Shown one piece after another: positions 15,529 to 61,786 of a DNA stretch of 64,000 nucleotides. Location: sequence record MT611523.1. The stretch is one strand, 5' to 3'. Position numbers and translations under genes: made by a program. The stretch is from Escherichia phage DK-13. Below the pieces are notes generated by a model. It had not been told where the DNA came from. It searched no databases and worked only from the letters and a program-made list of their open reading frames with translations. The stretch's first letter is position 1. Every line of letters starts with the position of its first letter.

Positions 15529-15800
15529 AATCCGGAGGTATACATCATAAGATAACGGTGTATATCTTCGAATCCTTCGTTAAATTGTTCAATGATTTGT
15601 TCAATTTCATCTTCAGATAAACTTTTAAACAACTTGTTAAACGATACATTGTTTAACTCATTCCCATTCTCATTCCGTAATCCTAACTCATTCAAAAACG
15701 CGATAAACACATCACGCTTCATCGTAATATCTTCCCGGTCGGTTTTAATCAAAATTGAAGTTACAGTAACAATTTCAGAAACGATTTCAAATTTAGTCAT
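15525..15800 (-). CDS. asiA: anti-sigma70 protein AsiA
   Basis: 91 aa; ...EIVTVTSILIK..REDI...FIAFLNE.G...FNEGFE...RYL.MYT resembles T4 AsiA; converges on holin t as in T4. Confidence 0.88.
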   Translation of the reverse strand: MTKFEIVSEIVTVTSILIKTDREDITMKRDVFIAFLNELGLRNENGNELNNVSFNKLFKSLSEDEIEQIIEQFNEGFEDIHRYLMMYTSGF

Positions 15801-15858
15801 TTTAATTTACTCAAGTATTCAATAAGACATTCAATTATTCAGTAAGGATATTGTACTA

Positions 15859-16023
15859 TTATTCCTCTGGGTTGTACACATGATTTTTCATCTGTACAAC
15901 ATATTCCTGATACATCTGTTCAACTGGTTCCTGGAACTTAAAATCAGCTCCAAGGAATTCCTCAAAGCAAGACTGTTCGTGTGTACGCTGGCCAGTAATG
16001 GTGTTCTCTAAGTTATGACTCAT
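15859..16023 (-). CDS. small hypothetical ORF (54 aa)
   Basis: ATG ORF below the track size cut-off, found by manual translation (MSHNLENTITGQRTHEQ...); weak support. Confidence 0.3.
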   Translation of the reverse strand: MSHNLENTITGQRTHEQSCFEEFLGADFKFQEPVEQMYQEYVVQMKNHVYNPEE

Positions 16024-16112
16024 AACGATTCCCCTTGTGCTTCTGCTTACGTTTGGACTGCATTTCAGTTTTCTTCTTATCCTTATGGACAGACGCCTTA
16101 TTGAAATCGTGC

Positions 16113-16391
16113 TTAGCTACCAGATTGTTCATGCAATTTCCTTAATTGATATTCAAGAGAACTGATAATTTCTTTATTAGTTGCAATATACATATCACGT
16201 AGGAAGGGTTTCAGACCTTCTCTAACTCTATACGTGTTATCACTAATATCCTTTATATATTCATGGTCTAAAGCATCCCAAGCCGGCTGGTTAACATAAG
16301 TTCCCCAGTTGTCTTCCATCATAGTGTTCAGACGTTTGATATGATTGATATGAGTTTCGATTGCATCAATCTGGAGTTGTTTAAGGTTCAT
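16113..16391 (-). CDS. hypothetical protein (92 aa), at the T4 arn position
   Basis: ATG ORF between asiA and motA; same length as T4 Arn, but I cannot verify similarity. Confidence 0.45.
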   Translation of the reverse strand: MNLKQLQIDAIETHINHIKRLNTMMEDNWGTYVNQPAWDALDHEYIKDISDNTYRVREGLKPFLRDMYIATNKEIISSLEYQLRKLHEQSGS

Positions 16392-16879
16392 TAATAAAGG
16401 TCCTCTGAATAAAGTTCTTTTTCACTACCGCCACGACGTTCAATACGCACTTGATTTGCATAAGTCGCAATAATCATTGCTTCTTCGCGGGTCCAGTAAT
16501 TGCTGTACTGGTCAATGAATCCTTGATTATCACCACAAACATGGTCTGACACAAGTTTATCACTTACTTGGTCAAGCACTTCTGCCATATCCTTGGAATA
16601 ATGTCTGGCACCAGGAATAACCAGAGTCCCACCATCTTTTAACTTAAATCGGTTGGCTGCACATACAATCCGTCGCTGATATTTTTCATTATTGTTCCAA
16701 TGAGCAATCTGCCAACAGATTTCAGGAACTTCTTCTAAAACATCCTCTTCCGTATATTCGGTGTATCCATAAGCCTGTAATTTAGCTGCTAGACTTTCTA
16801 GAGTTTCACGAGAAAGAGCTTTATCTAATAAAGCCATACGGTCTTTAAAGGATAATTCTTTACCTTTTAATGGATTCAT
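16391..16879 (-). CDS. hypothetical protein (about 163 aa)
   Basis: start placed at ATG 16879 overlapping upstream stop (ATGA); no recognisable domain. Confidence 0.5.
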
Positions 16880-17208
16880 TTGAACCAACCTTTAACACGT
16901 TGCCACAGACTTTTCTGTTGAGCTTTATTAACACCAATTGAGCGAATAACTGGTTGTGATTCCTGGTATTCTTTGTAGTCAGCTTTATATACTTCATATG
17001 CTGCTGGAACAAAGGCACCAATCGCTGCCATGAAGTTCTTGCGTGCACCAAACGGAGCTACTGCATCATCCTGACGATGGATAAGATACTGACCAGCTTT
17101 GACCTTGACAATAGTTCCAAGGTAAGCGCCATGATACCAAACATCCCAACCCTCTTGAGTAGGTTCTACACAAGCGCGCAATTCATTAACAATATTCAGC
17201 TTATTCAT
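16876..17208 (-). CDS. hypothetical protein (110 aa)
   Basis: ATG with SD (GAGGAAA) ; no recognisable domain. Confidence 0.5.
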
Positions 17209-17215
17209 AATTTCC

Positions 17216-17824
17216 TCACTTTAAGATGTTAATAACATGTTGAATGTTTTCAGTTGACATAACATTGTCAATGTAGGTATTCAATCCACCCACTTTAACG
17301 CTAAATCCCACATCTGTAAACTGTTTTACTATCTTTTGTTCAGTATTATACGCATGTACGCGAATCTGACCATCACGCCGCACATCAATCTGTTTTAATG
17401 TCTTGATACGCTTGAACTTCACAATCAGATTGCTGCGGTCTTCTGAAATGCTCTTAAAGTCAATACCAATAGACAATAATTGCTCTTTGATATATTCTGC
17501 AGTCGCTTCCATTTCATCAGTAACACCGCGTTTTGTTCTTGTCTTCTTCACTTCCAGAAGGTCGGGATTATTTTCATTCGCCCAAAGTTCAGCTGCATCC
17601 AGAATAAGGTCAACACCCTTTTCTGTAATCATCAAACCATCACCAGAAGCTTCAACATAGTTGTTATTCAACAATGTCTGCACGCTATCAATTGACGTGT
17701 TCTGCTGGCCTAAAACAACCTCAGGACGCACGAAGTTGTTTTTGTATACAAACACCAGAGCATTAACATCAGTCTCATGTAGAGCGTTCTGGGAGCATTT
17801 AACGATATAATTTAACTTGTTCAC
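17216..17824 (-). CDS. motA: middle-promoter transcription activator MotA
   Basis: 202 aa; start codon GTG with AAGGGA SD; N-terminus M.K..YI.K.S and overall pattern resemble T4 MotA; synteny between asiA and 52. Confidence 0.8.
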   Translation of the reverse strand: MNKLNYIVKCSQNALHETDVNALVFVYKNNFVRPEVVLGQQNTSIDSVQTLLNNNYVEASGDGLMITEKGVDLILDAAELWANENNPDLLEVKKTRTKRGVTDEMEATAEYIKEQLLSIGIDFKSISEDRSNLIVKFKRIKTLKQIDVRRDGQIRVHAYNTEQKIVKQFTDVGFSVKVGGLNTYIDNVMSTENIQHVINILK

Positions 17825-22353: not shown

Positions 22354-22947
22354 TCAGCTTGTAAACCGGTGATAGGGAAATTTTTCTTCTGAACAAGAAC
22401 GGAGGTACCAGCCATCCCCTTGTGACTTCTGCACAAGACCAGACTCAGGAACGAAAGCACCAGGCCCAGCAAGGAATTTTGGTTTAAATCTATAACCTTT
22501 GAGAGTCTCTTTTACATCGAGCATAATCATAAGGTCAGCAAGTTTGTGTTGCATAAAGGGACCAAGATTAACCCCGTAACCATGTGGATAATCGCCCTGG
22601 TGACCAGTATGCACGGATATCCATTTGGAACCAGACTGGTGGGTCTTGACTTCGATTCTTACCCCTTCCTTCGAAACTACATCAAATGCAAAGGAATAAG
22701 GATTATCGTAATCTTCATCACCGCCACATAAAAAACCGGAGGTCCATTTGGCAATAGCTTGTTCAGCCATTGTGGCCACCATACATCTTTGCATGACTTG
22801 CTCACGGTCCTGACCTGGGTCTTTACGCAATGAATACCGGGCAGTGTCTACAATCTTTTGCAGGGATTCGGGGGTTAAGTCTTCCTTTGTATAAAGGAAG
22901 GAGGGCATCTTTTTCAGATGCTCCCATGTTTTACTCTTCTGAATCAT
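22354..22947 (-). CDS. denB: DenB-like endonuclease (start uncertain)
   Basis: track ORF 22354..23031; start moved to ATG 22947 with AAGGA SD just after upstream stop; first ORF downstream of rIIB region as denB in T4; possible D-x(n)-E-V-K nuclease motif (AFDVVSKEGVRIEVK). Confidence 0.4.
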   Translation of the reverse strand: MIQKSKTWEHLKKMPSFLYTKEDLTPESLQKIVDTARYSLRKDPGQDREQVMQRCMVATMAEQAIAKWTSGFLCGGDEDYDNPYSFAFDVVSKEGVRIEVKTHQSGSKWISVHTGHQGDYPHGYGVNLGPFMQHKLADLMIMLDVKETLKGYRFKPKFLAGPGAFVPESGLVQKSQGDGWYLRSCSEEKFPYHRFTS

Positions 22948-39566: not shown

Positions 39567-40392
39567 TTTCGAACCTCTTTACCATGTTTATATAATTTTC
39601 GTCTGGATAACCTAAACTAACTGCTAACTTTCTAAAATTCACATATTTAGGTTTGTTATTACTAAGCCATAAATCTCTAAGCTCAATTTCATAATTCCAT
39701 TTAAGCTGGTTTCCTCTAGCAGTTTTGCTCAAAGTTTTTCCTTTATCTTTTAGAGCTTTTTCCGAAGACTGTTTTAATTTTTGGAGATTTAAAACTTCCT
39801 CAACAGATAAATTATTTTCTTCTGCATAGCGCGCACAAAAATCTTTTACTGTAGCTATTAGACAGTTTTTGTGGGTACCTAAAACTTCCGGATTATTTTC
39901 TTCAACCAAAACTCCCCAGTATCTTCGATAGCGAGGCATATCCCGCGAAATCCAGTCATTATACCAGAAATCAAAATTAGAATACATAAAGGATTTTCTT
40001 TTACGGAGAATGTCTTGCTCTATCCACTCCCCGCGTTTATCGGCCCATAACTTAATAGTAAGGTCTTTCTCTAAATCAGAAAGCTTCTTAAACTGGGCAC
40101 TATTTGTTAGTGTCATTCTCTGGAATGCATTAAGCAAACCCAACACCCGAGTTGAGCACAAAAGATAATGAACATATATGTGTTGGTATATAGGAAGATA
40201 CACCCTATTCCAAGGAGAGATTTTAAAATCGCTGTATTCTGGAAATGCACACTTCGGAAGTATATGATGAGCTTCCGTTTTAGATTTGGTATGGACGTTT
40301 AGTTTATACTTATCTATAATTTTTAAGTAATCATCTAAAAGTTCCCATTGCGGGAACTTTTCTTTAAGAACGGATTTGAAATTAATATCCAT
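39559..40392 (-). CDS. HNH-family homing endonuclease-like protein
   Basis: track start 40407 is TTG; ATG at 40392 with AGGA SD; HNH motif EAHHILPKCAFPEYSDFKISPWNRVYLPIYQHIYVH; inserted between 56 and soc. Confidence 0.7.
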   Translation of the reverse strand: MDINFKSVLKEKFPQWELLDDYLKIIDKYKLNVHTKSKTEAHHILPKCAFPEYSDFKISPWNRVYLPIYQHIYVHYLLCSTRVLGLLNAFQRMTLTNSAQFKKLSDLEKDLTIKLWADKRGEWIEQDILRKRKSFMYSNFDFWYNDWISRDMPRYRRYWGVLVEENNPEVLGTHKNCLIATVKDFCARYAEENNLSVEEVLNLQKLKQSSEKALKDKGKTLSKTARGNQLKWNYEIELRDLWLSNNKPKYVNFRKLAVSLGYPDENYINMVKRFENE

Positions 40393-40897
40393 TGTCCTGA
40401 CGTTCAAAGTTGTGTTTATTTTTCAAATAATAAAGTTTAAACATTTCTTCGGCTGACATATTAAGACCAATAGCCATATTGAATACAAAGTGCATAATGT
40501 CAATTAATTCAAATTTAATTTCGAGTTGGTCTTCAGGAGACATTTCTGAAATAGGTTTAGCTTGTGCTTCCAGATAACGAGCTTTCCATTTTTTCCAGAC
40601 ACCTGAAGCATCTTTTTCACCTTTAGACATTTCACCGAGAGAAGTCAAAAGTTCACGGAATTCATCATCAATACAGTCTTTCTGTTCGCGCATCCAGGCA
40701 ACTACATCGCCTGCAGTGGCCAGTTTATCCGGATGGTAGCAATAATCACGGTCATTAGCCAGACGAACCTGCAATGATTTCTGCATATCAAGCATAACTT
40801 GCAGTGGGTCAGTGCCTTCAAAAATTGCATTATCATAAGCGCCTTGAGCTTTATCAACACCAGCAATCAGTTGAGAACACTCGTTAAAATGAGCCAT
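40382..40897 (-). CDS. 56: dCTP pyrophosphatase gp56
   Basis: start moved to ATG 40897 (MAHFNEC...); ...DPLQVMLDMQ..LQ.RLAN.R.YCYHPDKL.TAGDVV.WMREQKDCIDDEFRELLTSLGEMS.GEK.AS.VWKKWKARY.EAQ resembles T4 gp56. Confidence 0.9.
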   Translation of the reverse strand: MAHFNECSQLIAGVDKAQGAYDNAIFEGTDPLQVMLDMQKSLQVRLANDRDYCYHPDKLATAGDVVAWMREQKDCIDDEFRELLTSLGEMSKGEKDASGVWKKWKARYLEAQAKPISEMSPEDQLEIKFELIDIMHFVFNMAIGLNMSAEEMFKLYYLKNKHNFERQDNGY

Positions 40898-41358: not shown

Positions 41359-42108
41359 CTAAACTTTTGCGTACTTCCAAAAATGGCCGTTTGACCTATA
41401 CATTCGGCCTGTCTTTTTATTTCTTTTACAAGCTGTGTATATATTTTGAGTATTGCCCGCCAATTGTAATAATTCCTTTGCCTCAGCTCCCGAATTATAC
41501 TTTTCAAGTATATTACCAAATTCATCGCATCTACAAACCGGTGTTCCAGTTGCCTTTCGGCATGCTTCTCGGCGCAACTTTTTCGTTTCTTCGGTTTGCG
41601 GATTTTCTTTAAATCGTCTCATTTGTGCATCGCGATTCTTTTGCCGTTGTTCATCAGTAATTGGATTATTTTGATAATACAATTTTAATGAGTTGGCTAT
41701 TTTGCTTTTGGTTTTATCAGACGCAGGGTGGTCGTTATGTCGCTTGTGTAAAGCAATTAACATTTTGTCTTTAAACTCGGATTGACTCCATAAGTTTGAC
41801 ATATGTTCACTAACGGCTTTACTATGTTCTTTTCGCATCCATTCATATTTTGCGCTATCAAATTTGTCACCACACATCCGGTGTATAGCAAACATTAATT
41901 TAGAAAGTCGATAAATTTTAAAAAGTAACAAATGCGCAATAAAATGTTCTCTTGCTGATAACAATACCAAATTATCTTCGGTGTCAGGCCCACCCAAACA
42001 CCTTGGTAGTATATGATGGGACTCCGTATAAAATGGGATATTCTTTTTGTTTAGGCCCCTTGCGAGGCCTTTGTCTATTAATTTATTATATAATTTTAGA
42101 TAATTCAT
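41359..42108 (-). CDS. HNH-family homing endonuclease-like protein
   Basis: 249 aa; HNH motif ESHHILPRCLGGPDTEDNLVLLSAREHFIAH; N-terminus paralogous to plus-strand HNH ORF at 56212; inserted between 61 and 56. Confidence 0.75.
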   Translation of the reverse strand: MNYLKLYNKLIDKGLARGLNKKNIPFYTESHHILPRCLGGPDTEDNLVLLSAREHFIAHLLLFKIYRLSKLMFAIHRMCGDKFDSAKYEWMRKEHSKAVSEHMSNLWSQSEFKDKMLIALHKRHNDHPASDKTKSKIANSLKLYYQNNPITDEQRQKNRDAQMRRFKENPQTEETKKLRREACRKATGTPVCRCDEFGNILEKYNSGAEAKELLQLAGNTQNIYTACKRNKKTGRMYRSNGHFWKYAKV

Positions 42109-47159: not shown

Positions 47160-47485
47160 CTCTTTTTCATTTTAATCTTATCAATTTCATCTTGTATTTG
47201 CATTGTAACACACTTTTCTACATGCACAGCAAGCTCCGCTTTGCGGTCTTCGGAAGGGGTACCGAAATCAACTGAAACTTTTCCAGATGGTTCAATTTTA
47301 ATTCCGGTTACGTACACAATGTGACTGGACCCATCAGGGAGTGATAACAGAATTTCCTGTCGTACAGTTCCCATGGATTGCCGGATAATCTCCAAACTTT
47401 TTTCGTAGTAAGGTACAGAAGGAGCCTTAGCTCCCTCCGCATCTTTCTCGAAATTATCTAAATCAGATAAATCGATATCATTCAT
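47144..47485 (-). CDS. hypothetical protein (113 aa), at the T4 gene 40 position
   Basis: track start 47488 is TTG; ATG at 47485; between uvsX and 41 as T4 gene 40. Confidence 0.45.
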   Translation of the reverse strand: MNDIDLSDLDNFEKDAEGAKAPSVPYYEKSLEIIRQSMGTVRQEILLSLPDGSSHIVYVTGIKIEPSGKVSVDFGTPSEDRKAELAVHVEKCVTMQIQDEIDKIKMKKRWWKW

Positions 47486-48656
47486 CAAGGTCTTCCATCA
47501 TATCTAAATCGTTTTCGATATCTGCAGCGGACGGTTTTGTCTTACCTTCAGGAGCAGAGTATTTTTCAACCTTGGAGGCAATAAGCGCATCAACTTCGGC
47601 ATCAACAACAGCATTGCTATCGATTGCACCCAGTTGGTAATGGCGTTTGATTGCATCACGGAAAGGTTCGTGTTTAAACAGCGGCCCCCAGAATTCGGTG
47701 CAGTTAGTATCTTTTGCGCGCCATGATTTTTCTTCGCGGACCATTTCCCCGGTCTCAACATCAAGATATTCACGGTTATACCAACCAACTTTTGGTTTAA
47801 CCACAAATCCGATTTCTATTGCCATATCAAGCAGGCCAGAATACGGGTCAATACCACCATCGAATTTTACATCAATGAAGAATTTACTTTTCTCTTTGAC
47901 CATACGAGATTTTTCGGCGTTCAGAACAAATTGGAAGCCTTCAAGTTCTTTACCAGTTTCTTTAATCTGACGTTTACCGATAATGAATACAGTGTCCGCG
48001 GAATACATAACACCTGTGCCACCGGTCATAACGGTTTTACTGTACATCTCAATCGTCTCGATTGTATGGTTAACCGCGACACAAGGAATATCCTTGATAC
48101 TAAAATAAGGGGTAACAATACGGAACAGAGATTTCAGGGATTTAGCACGAGTCATATCGCCAACGACTTTTTCGTTCATCGCATCTTCTGTTTCTTTTTT
48201 CGACGCCATGTTACCGATTGAGTCAATAAAGATAATGACTTTTTCACCACGCTCAATTGCTTCAAGCTGGTTAACCATATCAACTTTCAATTGTTCAACC
48301 GACTGGATTGGTGTATGGATAACACGCTCCGGGTCTACTTTCATTGCACGAAGATATGCTTCTGTGATACCAAATTCTGAATCATAGAACAAACAGATTG
48401 CGTCGGGGTATTTGTTCATATATGCAGAGACCATCGTTAAACCCATATTGGATTTAAAGTGTTTTGACGGACCAGCAAAAATAGTCAAACCTGACTGCAT
48501 ACCACCATCTAGTGCACCGCTGATTGCAATGTTCAGCATCGGGATTTTTGTACGAACTACATCTTTATCATTAAAGAACTTGGACTTGGTAAGAGTCGCA
48601 GTCATTTTGGATGTAGAAGCTTTAATCAAACGGGATTTCAAATCTGCAATAGACAT
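47478..48656 (-). CDS. uvsX: recombinase UvsX (RecA-like)
   Basis: 392 aa; MSIADLKSRLIKAS..K....L..SKFFN.KD...T..P.LN.A.SG; Walker A-like GPSKHFKS; resembles T4 UvsX. Confidence 0.93.
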   Translation of the reverse strand: MSIADLKSRLIKASTSKMTATLTKSKFFNDKDVVRTKIPMLNIAISGALDGGMQSGLTIFAGPSKHFKSNMGLTMVSAYMNKYPDAICLFYDSEFGITEAYLRAMKVDPERVIHTPIQSVEQLKVDMVNQLEAIERGEKVIIFIDSIGNMASKKETEDAMNEKVVGDMTRAKSLKSLFRIVTPYFSIKDIPCVAVNHTIETIEMYSKTVMTGGTGVMYSADTVFIIGKRQIKETGKELEGFQFVLNAEKSRMVKEKSKFFIDVKFDGGIDPYSGLLDMAIEIGFVVKPKVGWYNREYLDVETGEMVREEKSWRAKDTNCTEFWGPLFKHEPFRDAIKRHYQLGAIDSNAVVDAEVDALIASKVEKYSAPEGKTKPSAADIENDLDMMEDLDE

Positions 48657-48735: not shown

Positions 48736-48864
48736 TTAACGATTGAATCCACGATTAATTGCACGTTCAACAATCTTCCGGGTCTGACGTTTGTCCCACC
48801 AGTACATAAAACCAATACCAAATGCAGACAACAGCCATAGGCTAATCAATAACATACCAATCAT
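48736..48864 (-). CDS. small hydrophobic peptide (42 aa)
   Basis: manual translation MIGMLLISLWLLSAFGIGFMYWWDKRQTRKIVERAINRGFNR. Confidence 0.3.
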   Translation of the reverse strand: MIGMLLISLWLLSAFGIGFMYWWDKRQTRKIVERAINRGFNR

Positions 48865-48885
48865 AATATTCTTCTCGCAGTTTGT

Positions 48886-49389
48886 TTAGTTAATACCTTG
48901 GCGTGCTTTCTCTTTAGCTACACATTTATTAATATAGCTCAGACGGTTTTGAGCAGAACGCTGATACATATCGCGGTACTCATTAGCTTTTGGAGAACCC
49001 GTCTCTGCTGCCTGATAAGCTTCTGCGCGCATGATGTTTATCTGCATATTGATGTATGACATGCAGACCTGTGAAATCTGGTTAACAGTATCCAGGTCAT
49101 TTTGTCGCTTGGTTTCTGCTTCCAGCTTGGCAATGATTTCGTCATGCTTCGCAGCTTGCTCGCGTTTGTACTCAATTTCTTGTTGAGCATATTTCGCGCA
49201 GTTGTTTCCACATTGATTGTTGTCGCGTTTGTAGATAAGTCCAGTACCACCTTTGAAATCAAAGGAACCATTATGCACCTGACGGTCTGCAGCAATTCGC
49301 GCTTTACCAATCTCGTTGGCATTAACAACATCACCCTGGTAAGCACAACCAGATAGCAGCATAACAGCTGCGATAGCTAACTTTTTCAT
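48886..49389 (-). CDS. putative lipoprotein (167 aa)
   Basis: signal peptide plus lipobox MKKLAIAAVMLLSGC; coiled-coil-like remainder; occupies the interval where T4 has beta-gt and gene 42. Confidence 0.55.
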   Translation of the reverse strand: MKKLAIAAVMLLSGCAYQGDVVNANEIGKARIAADRQVHNGSFDFKGGTGLIYKRDNNQCGNNCAKYAQQEIEYKREQAAKHDEIIAKLEAETKRQNDLDTVNQISQVCMSYINMQINIMRAEAYQAAETGSPKANEYRDMYQRSAQNRLSYINKCVAKEKARQGIN

Positions 49390-49537
49390 TTTGCTTCCTA
49401 ATTAAAACATTCATAGCGGGCTTGGAGCCCCAAAAATACCCAACCCAAAATTAAAGTTGGAATCATATGTGGAGTCATTATTGCCCAGTAGATTGACATA
49501 CTAAAAAATGCAATCAGTACAATAATTGTAATTATCT

Positions 49538-49780
49538 TCATTTTGATTCCTTGATGATAATTACTTGTGCGTTTGATTTACGTTCAGCAACGAGTGCCCA
49601 GATAAATGCAATAAACCATCCGACCATTGTCCAACCTAACAGAAGGTTAACAAAGAAGATTCCGCAATTACTTTTGGTACCACGCAGCAGCGCGATAATC
49701 CACGGCAGAAAATATGCCAGTGCAGCCAGGAAGAAAGAACCAGCCCCAAGAACAACAGTACCCGCAATTAATGTTTCCAT
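49538..49780 (-). CDS. imm: immunity protein Imm-like (superinfection exclusion membrane protein)
   Basis: 80 aa with two hydrophobic segments; immediately downstream of gene 43 as T4 imm. Confidence 0.55.
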   Translation of the reverse strand: METLIAGTVVLGAGSFFLAALAYFLPWIIALLRGTKSNCGIFFVNLLLGWTMVGWFIAFIWALVAERKSNAQVIIIKESK

Positions 49781-49849: not shown

Positions 49850-52564
49850 TTAAAAGTCAAACATGTCAAAAAGAGTTGCTTTCTTTTCGTAATCAACCTT
49901 TGCAGCTTCAGAGAAACCTGTTAATGGCTTAACAAAAGTCTTCTGGAACAGTGTGTTGTAGTCCATCCACTGCAGAACCTGGTCACGGATTTCAATCGGG
50001 AGTTCAATCCCAGATGGCCATGCAATCACGGTTTCACCAAACGGGTTGCCGACTTTAAGAGGAAGTACATACACCTTTTCCCCTTCCATGATTTGCGGAA
50101 CAGTCTTCAGACCTTTAGTTGCACGCATATAAGCAAGCACACCTTTGATATGAGCCGGGCACTTAAATCCAGGGAAACCACCTTCATTATATTTCTGGAT
50201 GTTGTTAACCGATGATACACCTGCGATGGTCATGTAGTTAAGCTCATTAAATTCCTTATTGAATTCCTTGAAGTATGTCTGCAGAGATTCTTCACCTTCT
50301 TGCAGCATGCGGCGGATACATTCTTTCAGAGCTTTCTGACATGCCTTTGGAGTACTCGACTTTTGAGTTTCCAGACCCATAATTTTCAGTTTCGGAACAG
50401 CATAACGTGTGCCTTCCATATCGTACACGTTCAGCGCATAACGCTTCTTCGCCGTCCAGAATCCACCCACACCTTTAGAACCCAGCGGAGGACATGCAAT
50501 CGCCTCACGGTCCATAAACATAAGGTGCTGTTTGTTGTTCATGTATTCAGCCAGCTCACGGAAAGCTTTATCGATTGCCGGTTCCAGACGGTCTTTCGCA
50601 AACTTGTCCATGAAGTCAACCAGGTGGTTTGTATCACGGAATTTAGATTCGCCACCAACCTTTTTAATCAGGTTATCACACTGGATATAAATGGAGTCAG
50701 TATCGCCATAGAACACATAAGTTTCGCCGCTTGTCCCACAAACACTATCGAAGTATTCGTTAACTTTACGCTCAATCCACTGCAATGCAAGTTGTCCGAA
50801 AGATGTAATCGCGGTTGCATTTCGCAGGTCAAAGTAACGGAACCAGATATTGCCCAGAGCGCCATAACAGCTGTTGATAAGCAGCTTACGGTTAATCTGT
50901 GCGGTCATGCCTGCAACTTCTTCCATCTGCGCTTTATACAACATACCATTTAGGACTGTTTGATTCAGACCATGCAAGGTTGTTTTCATATTGTCATCAA
51001 AGTCATGACGATAATCAACTTCAGGTTCGGTTGTACCAGTTCCTGGATTGCGCAGAGCTTCCTTAATCAGTTCACCATTACGTTGAGCCGCAAGCATATA
51101 GCCTTTGTGCTCTTTACGCTGATTAAACACCTTGGTGACTTCTGTCGGAATAATACCCGCAACATCTTTAAAATACATCATACCATTTGGAGCACAACTA
51201 AATGTATCAGATGGACGGTCAGCAGTTCCGGCGATGTATTCATGCATTTGCGCAGGAGCAAATGAACCGGCAATCGTTTCTGGACTGATGTTAATCTGTC
51301 GGATAATGCTCGGATACAGAGATGTTAAGTCACAGCTCATTACATATTTGTACGCGTTCGGAATAGGTTCCTTAACAAATGCACCAGGGAACGATTGACG
51401 AACATGCGATTTGGTTTCCGGAATGACTTTGTTTTGAGTCTTCAGGCTGTTAAAGATAATCGCATCCCAAGTTTTGATTGGGCTGAATACAGACTGAATC
51501 TGCATTTTTGCGTAATAACCCATTGACTGACTCAGGTTAATAAACTGCCGCTTACGGTCAATCTGCACAACACGATAAACGTCGATGATGTTATAAGAAA
51601 TATACCGCTGGTGATTTGATTCGCGCAGTTTAGAAATCGGGCCATCATACGGGAGTTTACCAACACCCAGTTCAGATTCCGCAACATAATCCAACGAATA
51701 AGACGGTTGGTTTGTGAAGCTGAACTTTTTATACAGGTCCAGATAATCCAGAACAGAGATACCCAGAATCTGAATGATTTCTTGTTCTTCACCAAAGCCA
51801 TTGTTAATGACCTTAACTTTTGTACGACGATGTGGGCTCAGACGTTTTGCCGTAGCTTCACCAAATACATTTTTAAGGCGGTTGTAGATATATGGAATAT
51901 CAAATTTCTCGATGTTCCAACCAGTTAACATAACCGGAGTTTTCTCGTTCCAGAATACCAAATACTGCTGGAGCATTTCTTCTTCTGAATCGAAAGCCAT
52001 ATAAACAATTTTTTCCAGGATTTCTTCAGGGACTTCATCACCGCCGTCTTCCTGCAGCTTAGCAGCAATATCAATAGACCATTGCTCCACAGTGGCGTAT
52101 GGTGAGCCCAAAAGGTCAAAGACATAGAATTTATCGTCTACCGAATCATAGTGCGTCAGGGCATCAATAGGGTGACGTGCTTCAGACGGTTCAGGGAACC
52201 CATCAGGAGATGTCACCTCGATATCGAAGTTAGCAACACGGATTTTACTTGAATCATATTTGATTTCGTGTGGGTAACGGTCGGACAAGTATGCGAGTTT
52301 AAAGTCATCCATACCCATAGCTTCGAGACCCATGTCATTCATTCGCTTCATCCACTGGGATGCATCACGCATGGAATCGAATTCTTTTTTCACACAACCT
52401 TTATTATAGATGTCTGTATACTTTGCAGCCTGGCCTTCCCGGGCGTGCATAAACAAGCATGGGGCATAAGGGATTTCACGAACACGTTCATGACCATTCT
52501 TGTCAATATATCGTTCGAGTAGGTTGTCACCGATTTGTTCGATAGTTAAATAAAATTCTTGCAT
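49850..52564 (-). CDS. 43: DNA polymerase gp43 (family B)
   Basis: 904 aa; N-terminus M.EFY..IE..G.N..ERYID.NG.ER.RE; family-B motifs incl. YGDTDS; resembles T4 gp43. Confidence 0.95.
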   Translation of the reverse strand: MQEFYLTIEQIGDNLLERYIDKNGHERVREIPYAPCLFMHAREGQAAKYTDIYNKGCVKKEFDSMRDASQWMKRMNDMGLEAMGMDDFKLAYLSDRYPHEIKYDSSKIRVANFDIEVTSPDGFPEPSEARHPIDALTHYDSVDDKFYVFDLLGSPYATVEQWSIDIAAKLQEDGGDEVPEEILEKIVYMAFDSEEEMLQQYLVFWNEKTPVMLTGWNIEKFDIPYIYNRLKNVFGEATAKRLSPHRRTKVKVINNGFGEEQEIIQILGISVLDYLDLYKKFSFTNQPSYSLDYVAESELGVGKLPYDGPISKLRESNHQRYISYNIIDVYRVVQIDRKRQFINLSQSMGYYAKMQIQSVFSPIKTWDAIIFNSLKTQNKVIPETKSHVRQSFPGAFVKEPIPNAYKYVMSCDLTSLYPSIIRQINISPETIAGSFAPAQMHEYIAGTADRPSDTFSCAPNGMMYFKDVAGIIPTEVTKVFNQRKEHKGYMLAAQRNGELIKEALRNPGTGTTEPEVDYRHDFDDNMKTTLHGLNQTVLNGMLYKAQMEEVAGMTAQINRKLLINSCYGALGNIWFRYFDLRNATAITSFGQLALQWIERKVNEYFDSVCGTSGETYVFYGDTDSIYIQCDNLIKKVGGESKFRDTNHLVDFMDKFAKDRLEPAIDKAFRELAEYMNNKQHLMFMDREAIACPPLGSKGVGGFWTAKKRYALNVYDMEGTRYAVPKLKIMGLETQKSSTPKACQKALKECIRRMLQEGEESLQTYFKEFNKEFNELNYMTIAGVSSVNNIQKYNEGGFPGFKCPAHIKGVLAYMRATKGLKTVPQIMEGEKVYVLPLKVGNPFGETVIAWPSGIELPIEIRDQVLQWMDYNTLFQKTFVKPLTGFSEAAKVDYEKKATLFDMFDF

Positions 52565-55979: not shown

Positions 55980-56198
55980 TTAATCAAAGTATTCATATGC
56001 AAACCAGGCATTGTGTCTGTTCGCGATTATTTTAACATATTCTTCACCGAAAGCGTTTTGTAAGTCACGTTCAGTAACAAGGTGTTCATCTTTCGAAAAG
56101 GTATTAACTAACACATATCGTTTAATTTCAGGGACAGCCAGTAAATGCTGCCCGGTTAAAAAATTGCTCATAAATAATATTATCCGTTGCAGTATCAA
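55980..56198 (-). CDS. hypothetical protein (72 aa or shorter)
   Basis: track start is TTG; internal ATG at 56171; position as T4 45.2. Confidence 0.4.
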   Translation of the reverse strand: MILQRIILFMSNFLTGQHLLAVPEIKRYVLVNTFSKDEHLVTERDLQNAFGEEYVKIIANRHNAWFAYEYFD

Positions 56199-56211
56199 AC
56201 AAGGGTCTGAT

Positions 56212-56928
56212 ATGAATTATAACATCATTTACCAAAAGCTTATTAGCAGAGCATTGAATCGCAAATTAACCACATACTCTGAAAGTCATCACATTATACC
56301 CCGTTGCATGGGTGGGGCAGACGACGCTTCAAATCTTGTTGATTTAACTCCCGAGGAACATTTCGTTTGTCATCAACTGTTGGTCAAAATGCATCCAAAT
56401 AATGCTTCTTTGGTCTATGCCGCGCGCATGATGACAGTTTCCTCACCAAACGCCGACAGAAGCAAAAACAAATTATTTGGATGGCTTCGTCGTAAAAACT
56501 TGGAAGCTCAACAAAATAAAATTTTCTCCGATGAAACCAGAAAGAAAATGTCAGAATCCGCCAAATTAAAACCGAGAGTTGAATGTCCACACTGTGGAAA
56601 AACCGGTCTCGTTGGCAATATGAATCGTTGGCATTTTGATAACTGTTCCAAAGGTCCAAACAAGGTTGTTCATACTATTCCAGAAAAACAAAAGCAAAAA
56701 ATTTCAGTAGGATTAAAACAAGCTAAACATGAAATTTTAACTTGTGAATTTTGTGGTCTTGAAGGTAAAAAGTGTGTTATATCCACTCACCAACAATTCT
56801 GCAAATCCAATCCAAACCGGAAGAAAAAGGTGGACCCCAAAATTCAGTGTCCACATTGTAATGTAGTCGGTACGCCAGCCAATATGAAACGTTGGCATTT
56901 TGATAACTGCAAAATGAAGCCTCAATAA
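56212..56928 (+). CDS. HNH-family homing endonuclease-like protein with three C-terminal zinc-finger-like repeats
   Basis: track ORF 56011..56928; start moved to ATG 56212 (MNYNIIYQKL...); HNH motif ESHHIIPRCMGGADDASNLVDLTPEEHFVCH; repeats CPHCGKTGLVGNMNRWHFDNC, CEFCGLEGKKC, CPHCNVVGTPANMKRWHFDNC; only plus-strand gene in this early block. Confidence 0.75.
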   Translation: MNYNIIYQKLISRALNRKLTTYSESHHIIPRCMGGADDASNLVDLTPEEHFVCHQLLVKMHPNNASLVYAARMMTVSSPNADRSKNKLFGWLRRKNLEAQQNKIFSDETRKKMSESAKLKPRVECPHCGKTGLVGNMNRWHFDNCSKGPNKVVHTIPEKQKQKISVGLKQAKHEILTCEFCGLEGKKCVISTHQQFCKSNPNRKKKVDPKIQCPHCNVVGTPANMKRWHFDNCKMKPQ

Positions 56929-58831: not shown

Positions 58832-59069
58832 CCTTGATGCATGATTCAGCCATATGAATTAATGTCTCTGGAGTATCATCTTCCATTACATTAAAGCTAA
58901 ATTCCACGGCCCAATCGGTGACTACATAGACTTTGATAAGTTGACCAGTTTCCCGGTCAGTGATAGCTTCAAACCAATACTTAATAGTATTCGGTTGATT
59001 ATCGTCGTCAACCACAGCACATTCGCGGATATGTTCAAGACCCGCTTCATTAAAATCATAAAGTCTCAC
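58806..59069 (-). CDS. hypothetical protein (87 aa)
   Basis: track start is GTG overlapping gp47 stop (GTGA); between 47 and 46. Confidence 0.45.
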   Translation of the reverse strand: MRLYDFNEAGLEHIRECAVVDDDNQPNTIKYWFEAITDRETGQLIKVYVVTDWAVEFSFNVMEDDTPETLIHMAESCIKDAYYDEDF

Positions 59070-60085
59070 GGTTGCACCTCAAGGTATAATTTGTTGGCCA
59101 ATGCTTTGAGAGCTTTTGATTCTTTCTCATTGGCGTCAGGTAATGCATCGATATATTCTGCCATCATATCTGTTAAGCGTTTTATGTCTAACTCTTCATC
59201 AGAGTCTGATGTGTCAACACTGTTATCAACCTTATTGACAACACGCAATTCATGCACACGCTTTTCTAATTCAGATTCGAACTTGGTCAGGTCTTTATCG
59301 ACTTTTTCTACAATAACACGGACTGATAAGTCTTTGAAGTCGTCGTAGTTAATAGTTTCGTTTGGATAGAAAATCTTCCGATGCCAGGTGGTTTCATTCG
59401 GAATAAATTTCATCTCTTCGGTTTCGGTATCAAATTCCCAGAACCCGCGCGGGTCGTTCTCGTCACCTGCTGTTAATGTCCATGGTGTCCCGATGTACTT
59501 AACGTTTGCAGCTTCTGAAATTGTGTGGAAGTGACCAGACCAAACTTGCTTGTACTTCTTAAGGAAATCAGGCTCAAGTCCGTGGGATTTCAATCCTTTA
59601 TAGAAATAAAACCCGGTTAATTCCCAGTGACCGATGCAATATTCAGCCCCAGAAGTTTTGATATGTTGGTGAATGTCAGTTGCGTTCTCGTCACACATCC
59701 ATGGAATCATATCAATCTGACAACCGTCAAAATCAACAGTCGTTGGCTTATCGTAGATTTTAACATGGTCATACTTATTCAGGAGTTCAGTGATAGCATT
59801 AGGATGAATCTTATTCTTCAGATTCATGTCATGGTTCCCGACTATCGTGTGCATAGTAATTCCTGCTTCACGAAGGAGTTCCATAATCTCACGGCTGAAT
59901 TCCATCGTCTTATGCGTTACGGCCTTACGGACGTCAAAAATATCACCATATTGAATCCAGACTTTAATCCCATTCGCTTTGGAATATGCAATCGCCTGTA
60001 AAATACCATCGCGTTGAATGTTTTGAGCCCATGGGTCGTCAGCTTTGACACCTAAGTGCCAATCACCTAAATTTAAAATTTTCAT
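59066..60085 (-). CDS. 47: recombination endonuclease subunit gp47 (SbcD/Mre11-like)
   Basis: track ORF extends to 60112; start moved to ATG 60085 (MKILNLGDWHLG...) matching T4 gp47 N-terminus as recalled; phosphoesterase motifs GDIFD, GNHD. Confidence 0.92.
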   Translation of the reverse strand: MKILNLGDWHLGVKADDPWAQNIQRDGILQAIAYSKANGIKVWIQYGDIFDVRKAVTHKTMEFSREIMELLREAGITMHTIVGNHDMNLKNKIHPNAITELLNKYDHVKIYDKPTTVDFDGCQIDMIPWMCDENATDIHQHIKTSGAEYCIGHWELTGFYFYKGLKSHGLEPDFLKKYKQVWSGHFHTISEAANVKYIGTPWTLTAGDENDPRGFWEFDTETEEMKFIPNETTWHRKIFYPNETINYDDFKDLSVRVIVEKVDKDLTKFESELEKRVHELRVVNKVDNSVDTSDSDEELDIKRLTDMMAEYIDALPDANEKESKALKALANKLYLEVQP

Positions 60086-60225
60086 AAGCCAAGCGCCGTT
60101 ATCGCAGTGCAAAATAAAATTATTGAAATGAACCCGTCAGGAGTGGAAAAGAATCCTATCCAACAAGCTCTTGTGAATGTGTAGAATGCCATGAATAGCA
60201 CGACATATCCTAAAAATAATTCCAT
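60082..60225 (-). CDS. small membrane peptide (47 aa)
   Basis: manual translation MELFLGYVVLFMAFYTFTRACWIGFFSTPDGFISIILFCTAITALGL; GAGGAG SD; stop overlaps gp47 ATG (ATGA). Confidence 0.35.
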   Translation of the reverse strand: MELFLGYVVLFMAFYTFTRACWIGFFSTPDGFISIILFCTAITALGL

Positions 60226-60514
60226 ATACTCTCCTCAGTTGGTTCATTTTATCATCCCGAATATAAAGCAAAAAAGGAAGCACTAGGCTTCCTTTCCAAT
60301 TAATACACCATACAGAGGTTCATGAGAAGACCTGAACTTGATAGGCTTATAGGTAATAGTACCTTCATTTTCTGCTTTAATACGAGCAGCTTCAAATTGA
60401 AGAATCATCTCGTTTTTGTCAGATTTAATCTTATCAAAATCCGTCGAATTCGTCATTCATATGACCTCTTAAAAATCTGGATGTTCGTCGTTCATTAGCC
60501 ACCTGTCCATGTTA

Positions 60515-60715
60515 TCATCGTTGCCACCATTTCTTAAGTTGATGAGAATCGACCCAAACCTTGGCTACAGGCTCAATCTGAAAAATACCATCAGAATATT
60601 GGCCCATCATTTTGTATTCGGTTTCGGTTTGCTTGATACAGATATTACCGTATGAGCGAAGTCTGAAAGCGGCTCCAACAAGAAGCCGTTTAAAAGGTTT
60701 ATTTACTAATGCCAT
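60515..60715 (-). CDS. hypothetical protein (66 aa)
   Basis: ATG ORF in the 47-55 interval. Confidence 0.4.
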   Translation of the reverse strand: MALVNKPFKRLLVGAAFRLRSYGNICIKQTETEYKMMGQYSDGIFQIEPVAKVWVDSHQLKKWWQR

Positions 60716-61010
60716 TTACGATTTCCCAAATTTGTTTGCGAGTAGAATCCCACATCAACTTAATCAGGTCTTCCGTAACTGGTTGGCGGTAAATTCCACG
60801 CAGTTTAACAAGAGCATATTTGTATGCTTCAAAATTGTTTTCCAGCACTGCCCCTTGAGCATGCTTATTCAGTCGTGCAATTTCACGAGCATTCTTTTTC
60901 AGAATCTTCGCTGCTTGACTGGTTGCTTCGAGTGCGTTCGCTTCTTCGAGACGTTCCTGTGCTTCTTCAATCTGCTTATCGGTCAGTTGAGAAATATCTG
61001 GAGCTTGCAT
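60699..61010 (-). CDS. hypothetical protein (103 aa)
   Basis: ATG ORF in the 47-55 interval. Confidence 0.45.
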   Translation of the reverse strand: MQAPDISQLTDKQIEEAQERLEEANALEATSQAAKILKKNAREIARLNKHAQGAVLENNFEAYKYALVKLRGIYRQPVTEDLIKLMWDSTRKQIWEIVNGISK

Positions 61011-61011
61011 A

Positions 61012-61281
61012 TTAATCCTTGGGAGTTAACTCAATTGTAAAATATAGATTAGCATTATCCACATGATAACGGTAATCAACGTTATTGTCCGGAGAAGTAA
61101 ATTCCAGATTCCGGACGTTTAAAGGGTCGATATCAATTGGAAGACCTTTTATGTCTCGCAGATAAAGTTTAATGAAATATGGGAGAGCCGTAAAGTCTTC
61201 CTCGATTTTATCTAAAAAATCGGTAATATCAAATTGATGTTCCATATAAAAAATCCAAATCACCCTCTTTATCTTTGGCAC
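61012..61281 (-). CDS. hypothetical protein (89 aa, start uncertain)
   Basis: track start is GTG; internal ATG at 61245; overlaps 3' end of gene 55. Confidence 0.35.
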
Positions 61282-61786
61282 TCTTATCAGACCCTGGCGC
61301 TTTAACTAAGGAGGATTCGTACTGTGTCATTTTGTCATAGATGTCCTGGATAAATGTTTCATCAGCCAGAGCCACCATATCGTCATCACGTGAATCATAT
61401 ACGTTATGGACGAAGTAGCTATATTTCTTTGCCATTTCTTTACGTTCTTTTTTGATACGCTGAACGAAAGCATTGAAGCAAGCCATTGTTATGTAAGCAT
61501 GTGGATTATCGTATTTTGTTTCGTCGAAGTTGTGAAGACCTTTTATTGCGGCCTCAATACCGTCAGCAATCATTTCTTGCTTCCAGGATTGGGTATATCC
61601 GGAGAAGTTGAAACGTTTGCTAAGACCTTCGGCTATAAGCATAATCGCCAGACCAATAACATCGTTCTGGCGAATAATTTTGTTCGGGTCGGTGTTCGCA
61701 TTCAGCTTCTGTTTCCACTCCGAAATAGCTTTCAAAAGCTCTTTATTATTTACATAGTTATTCTTGGTTAATTTAATTTCGTTCAT
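61229..61786 (-). CDS. 55: late-transcription sigma factor gp55
   Basis: 185 aa; ...[129 protein letters not shown] resembles T4 gp55. Confidence 0.93.

Follow-up and report, generated by a model that had tools for sequence, protein, structure and literature searches.

The present analysis concerns the interval between genes 47 and 55 (positions 60086-61228) in a stretch of 64,000 nucleotides from the T4-like Escherichia phage DK-13 (sequence record MT611523.1; this stretch is called the window below), and what the gene content of this phage indicates about the cytosine in its DNA. The explanation which, taken as a whole, we consider fairly probable is that the interval is an ordinary Gaprivervirus gene block, lacking genes for 5-hydroxymethylcytosine (hmC) and for sugar transferases, and that cytosine in such phages is replaced by 5-methylcytosine (5mC) via an altered thymidylate synthase (TS), Td. 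This base is predicted because every Gaprivervirus Td examined carries aspartate (Asp) in place of asparagine (Asn) at a position where Asp is known to turn TS into a deoxycytidine monophosphate (dCMP) methylase. For the identity of the replacement base as 5mC, the chances appear to be slightly better than even.

The window covers 64 kb of a genome of approximately 170 kb, with about 106 kb lying outside it. The complete genome of phage SP18 served as a whole-genome stand-in, scanned for genes outside the window, and the gene orders of T4, RB69, and JS98 served as comparison maps. Over 3 kb at the locus (96-100% coverage), nucleotide identity is 98.3% to VR20, UPEC01, and TH41, 97.6% to SP18, and 94.7% to VR7. 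All classified members among the close relatives of the window belong to the genus Gaprivervirus, and the window is collinear with SP18 in gene order. The window phage is a Gaprivervirus of the VR7/VR20/SP18 group of T4-like coliphages. This descriptive part of the work, comprising the identity of the phage, the content of the block, and the missing modification genes, is close to certain.

Retained genes directed against ordinary cytosine

In T4, gp56 excludes ordinary deoxycytidine triphosphate (dCTP), and DenB cuts cytosine-containing DNA. Intact genes for both proteins are present in the window:

40382..40897, minus strand: gene 56, dCTPase/dUTPase (predicted activity), full length, 72% identical to JS98 gp56; PHROG 173, E 2e-41
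22354..22905, minus strand: denB, endonuclease IV; PHROG 1360 'DenB-like DNA endonuclease IV', E 9e-80

In the annotation of SP18, alc, denA, cd, gene 1, and frd are also listed. The retention of such genes constitutes a paradox, as Gapriverviruses keep gene 56, denB, denA, ndd, and alc without modified-base enzymes, while in T4 these genes are tolerable only because T4 DNA contains no ordinary cytosine (PMC8056088, PMC12115623). The replacement base of Gaprivervirus is described in the same two papers as non-canonical and currently unknown, and the gene set was held to be incompatible with replication on canonical bases (PMC12115623). The hmC-negative genera Krischvirus and Pseudotevenvirus are also devoid of denB and alc (PMC12115623). 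By restriction analysis, the cytosines of VR7 DNA were reported to be modified and unglycosylated (PMC6326788, Supplementary Fig. S4). In that study, VR7 DNA was also treated with T4 beta-glucosyltransferase, and the T4 gt- mutant was labelled 'hydroxymethylated', while VR7 was labelled only 'modified' (PMC6326788).

An aspartate-type thymidylate synthase

The td gene is the sole ThyA-family match in the SP18 genome, and it occupies the same position as in T4 (nrdA-td-frd), with a 4-bp overlap with frd. In every annotated record examined, td is annotated as 'thymidylate synthase'. The Td proteins of SP18, UPEC01, VR7, and P8 share the motif LPF-D-IGSY, whereas those of T4, RB69, JS98, and S16 have LPF-N-IASY; the SP18-type protein reads ...QRSVDVFLGLPF-D-IGSY.... 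This residue, Asp187, aligns with Asn177 of E. coli ThyA (Asn229 in the L. casei enzyme). Asp occupies the position in all 17 full-length Gaprivervirus-type Td proteins, in contrast to the other T4-like Td proteins found among the best matches of a search of 5.8 billion proteins, where it is Asn (115 out of 115). In the three Gaprivervirus clusters, Asp is present in all full-length members listed and in both fragments spanning the site, and the residue is invariant in a clade with up to 14% protein divergence.

Asn177 (L. casei Asn229) forms a hydrogen bond with uracil and determines whether the enzyme prefers deoxyuridine monophosphate or dCMP (PMC8670742). Its replacement by Asp turns TS into a dCMP methylase yielding 5-methyl-dCMP (Liu & Santi 1992, Hardy & Nalivaika 1992, Graves 1992, summarised in PMC8670742). 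Like the L. casei N229D and E. coli N177D mutants, the phage protein has this substitution in a TS active site that is complete in other respects; unlike them, it is a natural enzyme, in which further substitutions specific to the clade lie close to the pocket (E. coli positions 149, 179, 182, and 202). It was also reported that natural phage Asp-type ThyA homologues make 5-methyl-dCMP, in an assay in which co-expressed T4 gp1 carried the nucleotide into plasmid DNA (bioRxiv 10.1101/2024.12.05.627091).

Natural counterparts are known from Xanthomonas phage Xp12 and Pseudomonas phage PaMx74, in which all cytosine is reported to be replaced by 5mC by means of a ThyA-family dCMP methylase. Both have Asp at the position of E. 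coli Asn177, and, as in Gapriverviruses, a dCTPase, a deoxynucleoside monophosphate kinase, and a gene of the dCMP-deaminase family are also encoded. In contrast to Gapriverviruses, they are unrelated siphovirus-type phages with distant enzymes, while the Gaprivervirus enzyme is the orthologue of T4 Td located at nrdA-td-frd, and its product is predicted. The combination that characterizes the Xp12 type, namely an Asp-type ThyA with intact TS chemistry (Cys146, His147, and the tail), is found in the relatives of the window phage, td itself being outside the window.

Several features of Gaprivervirus Td bear on the reaction that it may catalyze. The protein aligns over its full length with the T4 Td structure 1TIS (E 6e-128) and keeps Cys146, His147, and the C-terminal tail. 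Its identity to genuine thymidine monophosphate (dTMP) synthases is 64-70% over the full length, while the match to RB69 gp48 is weak (25% over 104 residues). Methylases of this family possess a C-terminal tail and need dihydrofolate reductase, whereas hydroxymethylases have no such tail and no such need (PMC6400193).

The lineage of Asp-type Td proteins extends beyond the named genus, because a divergent T4-like Td (P0070, 67% identical, encoded on a 5.4-kb contig of Logan SRR24146912, L018 3953-4831) also has Asp, in the motif PFDIASY. This protein shares many Gaprivervirus-specific residues. Moreover, the motif FLG.PFDI[AG]SY occurs in 25 unrelated IMG/VR contigs, and the Asp-type proteins from IMG/VR are 31-46% identical to Gaprivervirus Td. 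The Asp determinant is therefore widespread in phages and, among T4-like Td proteins, is confined to the Gaprivervirus clade and P0070.

In some Gapriverviruses, td was called as two open reading frames (ORFs), of 183 amino acids (aa) (P0136) and 104 aa (P0131, P0132), with Asp kept. The two pieces are divided exactly at the position of the group I intron of T4 td, three codons ahead of Asp187; co-conversion during intron homing would put this residue at risk if the donor were of the Asn type.

Proposed pathway and points against it

In the pathway proposed here, gp56 would convert dCTP into dCMP, and Td(Asp187), using methylenetetrahydrofolate, would convert dCMP into 5-methyl-dCMP with the release of dihydrofolate, which Frd would recycle. 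Subsequently, gp1 and host Ndk would phosphorylate 5-methyl-dCMP to 5-methyl-dCTP, which gp43 would incorporate into DNA, with no sugar being added. The gene 1 homologue of SP18 is a candidate 5-methyl-dCMP kinase; the kinase tested in the published assay was T4 gp1. The dTMP would be supplied by host ThyA and/or by Cd deaminating 5-methyl-dCMP. In Xp12, label from cytosine was found in 5mC and thymidine, and the model of the authors is that thymidine arises by deamination of 5mC nucleotides (bioRxiv 10.1101/2024.12.05.627091). No part in the pathway would be played by the small ORFs of the 47-55 interval.

On this reading, which has roughly even chances, Gapriverviruses would be, to judge from the literature searched, the first T4-like coliphages with cytosine replaced by 5mC, having lost gp42 and the glycosylation cluster and having converted Td by an Asn-to-Asp change that would be a natural repeat of N229D. 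No link between Gaprivervirus, VR7, or SP18 and 5mC was found in the literature searched, which excluded the 2011 genome paper on VR7 (Arch Virol).

A number of points weigh against 5mC as the replacement base. DNA in which all cytosine is 5mC is expected to be an excellent substrate for McrBC, and attack by McrA and Mrr is also expected. For T4 Arn, the inhibitor of McrBC, no homologue was found in the window (E 0.84) or in SP18: at the corresponding locus (window 15534-17824; SP18 161.4-164.1 kb), asiA, arn.2, arn.3, arn.4, and motA are present and arn itself has no homologue. One Gaprivervirus record gives K-12 MG1655 as the host. The pathway also presupposes that gp56 may spare 5-methyl-dCTP and that Alc and DenB may spare 5mC DNA. 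The Asn-to-Asp rule would be transferred to these phages by analogy, from mutants and from the enzymes of other phages. Furthermore, td lies approximately 1.6 kb outside the window, which starts inside frd.2a, and the Asp allele of the window phage is deduced from its relatives. No excess divergence of Td relative to neighbouring genes was observed (69% identity to JS98 Td, with 52-95% for the neighbours), so any signal of neofunctionalisation is limited to the active-site substitutions. Finally, the VR7 paper refers only to 'modified cytosines' and does not name the base (PMC6326788).

Missing modification genes and the uvsX-43 locus

In T4, beta-gt and gene 42 are located between uvsX and gene 43. 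In the window, by contrast, the 1.2 kb separating uvsX (47478-48656) from gene 43 (49850-52564) contains neither of them. The following features were identified there:

48736..49780, minus strand: 'empty' 42/beta-gt locus between uvsX and gene 43, read from sequence and translations
48736-48864, minus strand: membrane ORF, 42 aa
48886-49389, minus strand: lipoprotein, 167 aa (MKKLAIAAVMLLSGC...), with a lipoprotein signal peptide, 52% identical to JS98 gp043
49398-49541, minus strand: membrane ORF, 47 aa
49538-49780, minus strand: imm, 52% identical to T4 Imm

An earlier reading of the window from its sequence only had noted that the beta-gt/42 locus is missing, and this is borne out, as the locus holds only imm, the 167-aa lipoprotein, and two membrane ORFs of about 45 aa. 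This run of envelope proteins has the look of a cluster for superinfection exclusion, and residues 1-28 of the lipoprotein are similar to T4 Imm.1. The same 167-aa ORF was considered as a nucleotide kinase of the RB69 p045 type and rejected, since it shows no similarity to that protein and has a lipoprotein signal peptide.

Searches with tblastn using T4 alpha-gt, beta-gt, and gp42 against the 64-kb window returned only noise (best E 1.3, 0.67, and 0.12, respectively), and the same queries gave no match in the complete SP18 genome (for gp42, none at E<0.01). An alpha-gt homologue elsewhere in the genome, which the sequence-only reading had named as a finding that would overturn it, was thus not encountered in either. 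Neither a glycosyltransferase nor a DNA methyltransferase is listed in the annotation of SP18. When ten SP18 ORFs without known function and 141-687 aa in length (nrdC.4, nrdC.6, nrdC.11, 30.2, gp093, gp130, gp132, gp147, gp148, and gp165) were scanned with Pfam, no glycosyltransferase, methyltransferase, or recognisable enzyme domain was found.

Genes of the arabinosylation type are likewise absent. It was reported that RB69 DNA contains arabinosylated 5-hydroxycytosine and that JS98 and RB69 carry DNA-arabinosylation genes between uvsX and gene 43 (PMC13326640); the DNA of the Dhakavirus VR5 was reported to be glycosylated (PMC6326788). At this locus, JS98 and RB69 have a gp42-like ThyA homologue, an arabinosyltransferase, a protein similar to thymidine monophosphate kinases, and genes for uridine diphosphate (UDP)-arabinose, whereas the window and SP18 have none of them. 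For JS98 gp038-042, no counterpart was found in the window or SP18, the gp42-like protein giving only a weak match to td. With RB69 p003 and p045-p055 as tblastn queries, nothing was found in the window at E<0.1, and in SP18 only p048 gave a match, to td. Relative to its sister genus, Gaprivervirus is devoid of the whole five-gene cluster of this locus. The arabinosyl-5-hydroxycytosine system of RB69 and DLP3, which consists of a 5-hydroxy-dCMP synthase, the arabinosyltransferases p003 and p046:47, a kinase, and UDP-arabinose genes, was therefore not found. Of four components of the glucosyl-hmC system of T4, T2, and T6, the gene for the dCTPase gp56 is present, while gp42, alpha-gt, and beta-gt are missing.

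Because nothing of this kind is located at uvsX-43, and homologues of gp42 or of the transferases are lacking in the window and SP18, the phage has no recognisable route to hmC or to DNA glycosylation. The proposal of the earlier reading that hmC glucosylation of the T4/T2 kind does not take place in this phage is supported: alpha-gt, beta-gt, and gene 42, as well as the arabinosylation genes, are absent from both the window and SP18, and the literature agrees. In two comparative papers, Gapriverviruses were described as having no known enzymes for modified bases, including those for hmC (PMC8056088, PMC12115623). Acinetobacter phages 133 and ZZ1 and Morganella phage MP1 are further T4-like phages named as being without gp42 (PMC8056088). 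The lack of alpha-gt, beta-gt, and gene 42 is an already known trait of the genus.

The interval between genes 47 and 55

The interval 60086-61228 is bounded by the start codon of gene 47 (ATG, 60085) and the stop codon of gene 55 (61229), with all genes on the minus strand. The longest ORF of the coding strand inside it has 103 aa. The genes and one further feature are as follows:

59066..60085, minus strand: gene 47, SbcD-like recombination endonuclease subunit, true start ATG 60085; 72% identical to T4 gp47 over 338 aa, E 4e-170; PHROG 100, E 4e-133
60082..60225, minus strand: 47.1 homologue, predicted membrane peptide of 47 aa; 78% identical to T4 47.1 (E 8e-21), 94% to JS98 47.1; PHROG 6693, E 1e-30
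60271..60297, minus strand: terminator-like hairpin with T-run, overlapping the a-gt.2 stop; 11-bp stem, GGAAAGGAAGCCTAGTGCTTCCTTTTT, from a consensus scan (pattern match only)
60283..60456, minus strand: a-gt.2 homologue, 57 aa; Pfam DUF5486, E 6e-20; 95% identical to JS98 a-gt.2, 52% to T4 a-gt.2
60515..60715, minus strand: a-gt.3 homologue, 66 aa; PHROG 1648, E 6e-29; 94% identical to JS98 a-gt.3, 42% to T4 a-gt.3
60699..61010, minus strand: a-gt.4 homologue, 103 aa; Pfam DUF2654, E 2e-23; 78% identical to JS98 a-gt.4, 42% to T4 a-gt.4
61012..61245, minus strand: a-gt.5 homologue, 77 aa from ATG 61245; Pfam DUF5491, E 2e-12; 39% identical to T4 a-gt.5 from residue 1
61229..61786, minus strand: gene 55, late sigma factor; 80% identical to T4 gp55, E 9e-97; PHROG 234, E 4e-68

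By these matches, the five small ORFs are homologues of T4's own 47.1, a-gt.2, a-gt.3, a-gt.4, and a-gt.5, rather than stand-ins for alpha-gt, and the interval is the ordinary conserved early-gene block 47 - 47.1 - a-gt.2 - a-gt.3 - a-gt.4 - a-gt.5 - 55. The three Pfam assignments exceed the gathering thresholds (DUF5486 71.3 bits with a cut-off of 27, DUF2654 82.9 with 25, and DUF5491 47.5 with 27), and all five ORFs were assigned to PHROG families of unknown function. PADLOC and NCBIfam gave no assignment for any of the small ORFs of the interval. The AlphaFold model of the a-gt.4 homologue is of good quality (predicted local distance difference test score, pLDDT, of 84.5) and consists of four helices; a Foldseek search with it against the Protein Data Bank (PDB) gave nothing below E 0.97, and no significant match came from comparing a sequence profile with PDB entries.

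In the T4 record, the genes follow each other as 47, 47.1, alpha-gt, mobB, a-gt.2, a-gt.3, a-gt.4, a-gt.5, 55, so the sequence-only reading was right in placing T4 alpha-gt between genes 47 and 55. T4 and the window share the flanking genes, the coupling of 47.1 to gene 47, and the overlap of a-gt.5 with gene 55. The stop of the 47.1 homologue shares the 4 bp ATGA with the start of gene 47, an overlap that is identical in T4, where 47.1 is annotated as a predicted membrane protein; the overlap of the 47-aa membrane peptide with gene 47, described in the earlier reading as translational coupling, can be read directly from the sequence. The a-gt.5 homologue overlaps the end of gene 55 by 17 bp, like in T4. 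Its length would be 89 aa if an upstream GTG were taken as the start; T4 and JS98 homologues align from ATG 61245, which is most likely the start. The two phages differ in that T4 has alpha-gt (400 aa) and the gene for the homing endonuclease MobB (264 aa) between 47.1 and a-gt.2, whereas the window has only 57 bp in that place, containing the terminator-like hairpin.

The absence of alpha-gt between genes 47 and 55, as stated in the earlier reading, is confirmed by both the tblastn result (best E 1.3) and the size of the largest ORF. Its claim that only small ORFs occur there is also correct, but they do not stand 'instead' of alpha-gt, as T4 has the same five genes around it. From its list, the ORFs of 66 and 103 aa were recovered, whereas the 57-aa ORF at 60283-60456 had been overlooked, and the ORF of 'about 89 aa' most likely has 77 aa.

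Comparison with other T4-like phages indicates how little weight the interval carries. JS98 (Dhakavirus) has the same genes 47, 47.1, a-gt.2, a-gt.3, a-gt.4, a-gt.5, and 55, with protein identity of 32-95% and no alpha-gt. RB69 (Mosigvirus) has the same block order, also without alpha-gt, but no 47.1 is annotated in it. The lack of alpha-gt at this place is the normal state outside Tequatrovirus, the genus of T4. Since JS98 and RB69 share the block and nevertheless carry DNA-arabinosylation genes at uvsX-43, the 47-55 interval alone says nothing about DNA glycosylation, and uvsX-43 is the informative locus.

In some GenBank records, a-gt.3 or a-gt.4 is labelled as an 'anti-restriction nuclease'; this name could not be substantiated, as T4 Arn has no homologue in the window or SP18 and none of Pfam, PHROG, NCBIfam, and PADLOC assigns such a function. 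In Yersinia phage P8 (L016 1539-2034) and phage EAWsc9 (L017 2933-3098), this label is attached to a-gt.3, a-gt.4, or an ORF past gene 55, and a-gt.2 is labelled 'head maturation protease'. Family searches do not support these labels, which look like annotation carry-over.

Alternative explanations

An alternative that we consider unlikely, yet worth weighing, is that cytosine is modified in another way, into unglycosylated hmC, 5-hydroxycytosine, or a new base, either by an Asp-type Td not acting as a reductive methylase or by a protein of no recognisable family. Asp-type enzymes of the ThyA family do include hydroxymethylases (T4 gp42) and 5-hydroxy-dCMP synthases (RB69 gp48); however, Gaprivervirus Td matches dTMP synthases over its full length and RB69 gp48 only weakly and, unlike hydroxymethylases, it retains both its coupling to frd and the C-terminal tail by which the site is closed for hydride transfer. 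The data on VR7 speak only of modified, unglycosylated cytosines, but the authors of that study, which concerned bacteriophage exclusion (BREX), applied the label 'hydroxymethylated' to T4 gt- and not to VR7 (PMC6326788). The base is called unknown in two papers (PMC8056088, PMC12115623), and the missing Arn homologue would suit a base that escapes recognition by McrBC. A large number of small SP18 ORFs have no assigned function, although the ten larger ones that were scanned contain no recognisable enzyme domain.

Ordinary cytosine, which would require gp56 to be mainly a dUTPase, Alc and DenB to have other targets, and the Asp of Td to be tolerated or to confer dual specificity, is improbable. 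This explanation would account for the lack of gp42, glycosyltransferases, and DNA methyltransferases in the window and SP18, and for the missing Arn homologue, as cytosine-containing DNA needs no countermeasure against McrBC. T4-like groups without hmC do exist, as exemplified by Krischvirus and Pseudotevenvirus (PMC12115623), but those genera are without denB and alc; Gaprivervirus has retained the two along with gene 56, a gene set argued to be incompatible with canonical bases (PMC12115623). The restriction analysis of VR7, which shows modified cytosines (PMC6326788), also speaks against it, and the invariance of Asp across a Td clade with divergence of up to 14% and with intron-split alleles argues for selection.

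Glycosylation by a transferase encoded in the roughly 106 kb outside the window is very unlikely: although only 64 of about 170 kb are visible, T4-like genomes are mosaic, and the gene 56 protein is only 72% identical to that of SP18, the fully scanned SP18 genome has no such gene, two comparative studies found no known modified-base enzymes in Gapriverviruses (PMC8056088, PMC12115623), and the transferase loci of T4, RB69, and JS98 (47-55, uvsX-43, and rIIA-39) are all in the window and all empty.

Implications of the proposed 5-methylcytosine in Gaprivervirus DNA

Replacement of cytosine by 5mC, if true, would give a name to the non-canonical base flagged for the genus as unknown (PMC8056088, PMC12115623) and would answer how Gapriverviruses keep the dCTPase, DenB, and Alc without a known enzyme for a cytosine substitute. 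It would represent a DNA-modification pathway rebuilt from a housekeeping enzyme by one known specificity-determining substitution, and the phages with ThyA-dependent 5mC would then include T4-like coliphages, with the Asn-to-Asp change in Td as the added observation. The 'thymidylate synthase' label on td would call for caution in annotation. Fully 5mC DNA would also occur in phages that are being proposed for therapy and biocontrol. Such DNA is predicted to be sensitive to BREX and to nucleases that depend on 5mC and to withstand many type II enzymes, and generalised transduction by these phages would probably be low.

Homing endonucleases and other observations

Two ORFs related to MobB were found in the window outside the 47-55 interval:

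41359-42108, minus strand: HNH homing endonuclease, 249 aa, between genes 56 and 61; N-terminal 120 aa 51% identical to T4 MobB
56011-56928, plus strand: ORF located between rpbA and gene 46, with every neighbouring gene on the other strand; 44% identity (E 9e-27) to T4 MobB in the N-terminal half of the latter

The 249-aa ORF was considered as a modification enzyme and rejected, as it encodes an HNH homing endonuclease of the MobB type. It is absent from SP18, where a gap of 390 bp is found, while VR7 and VR26 have segF at that spot; vB_EcoM_RZ and P8 are the only phages in which the arrangement of the window was encountered (92-93% nucleotide identity). The region of gene 56 beside this endonuclease is mosaic among Gapriverviruses, and the gene 56 protein is only 72% identical to its SP18 counterpart, as opposed to the 97.6% nucleotide identity at 47-55. 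The second ORF probably encodes another HNH homing endonuclease, at the position occupied by gene 45.2 in SP18 and T4.

In SP18 (138071-138821; L005 38071-38821), a full-length alc gene (167 aa) is followed by an ORF of 77 aa resembling the N-terminus of Alc, a partial duplication.

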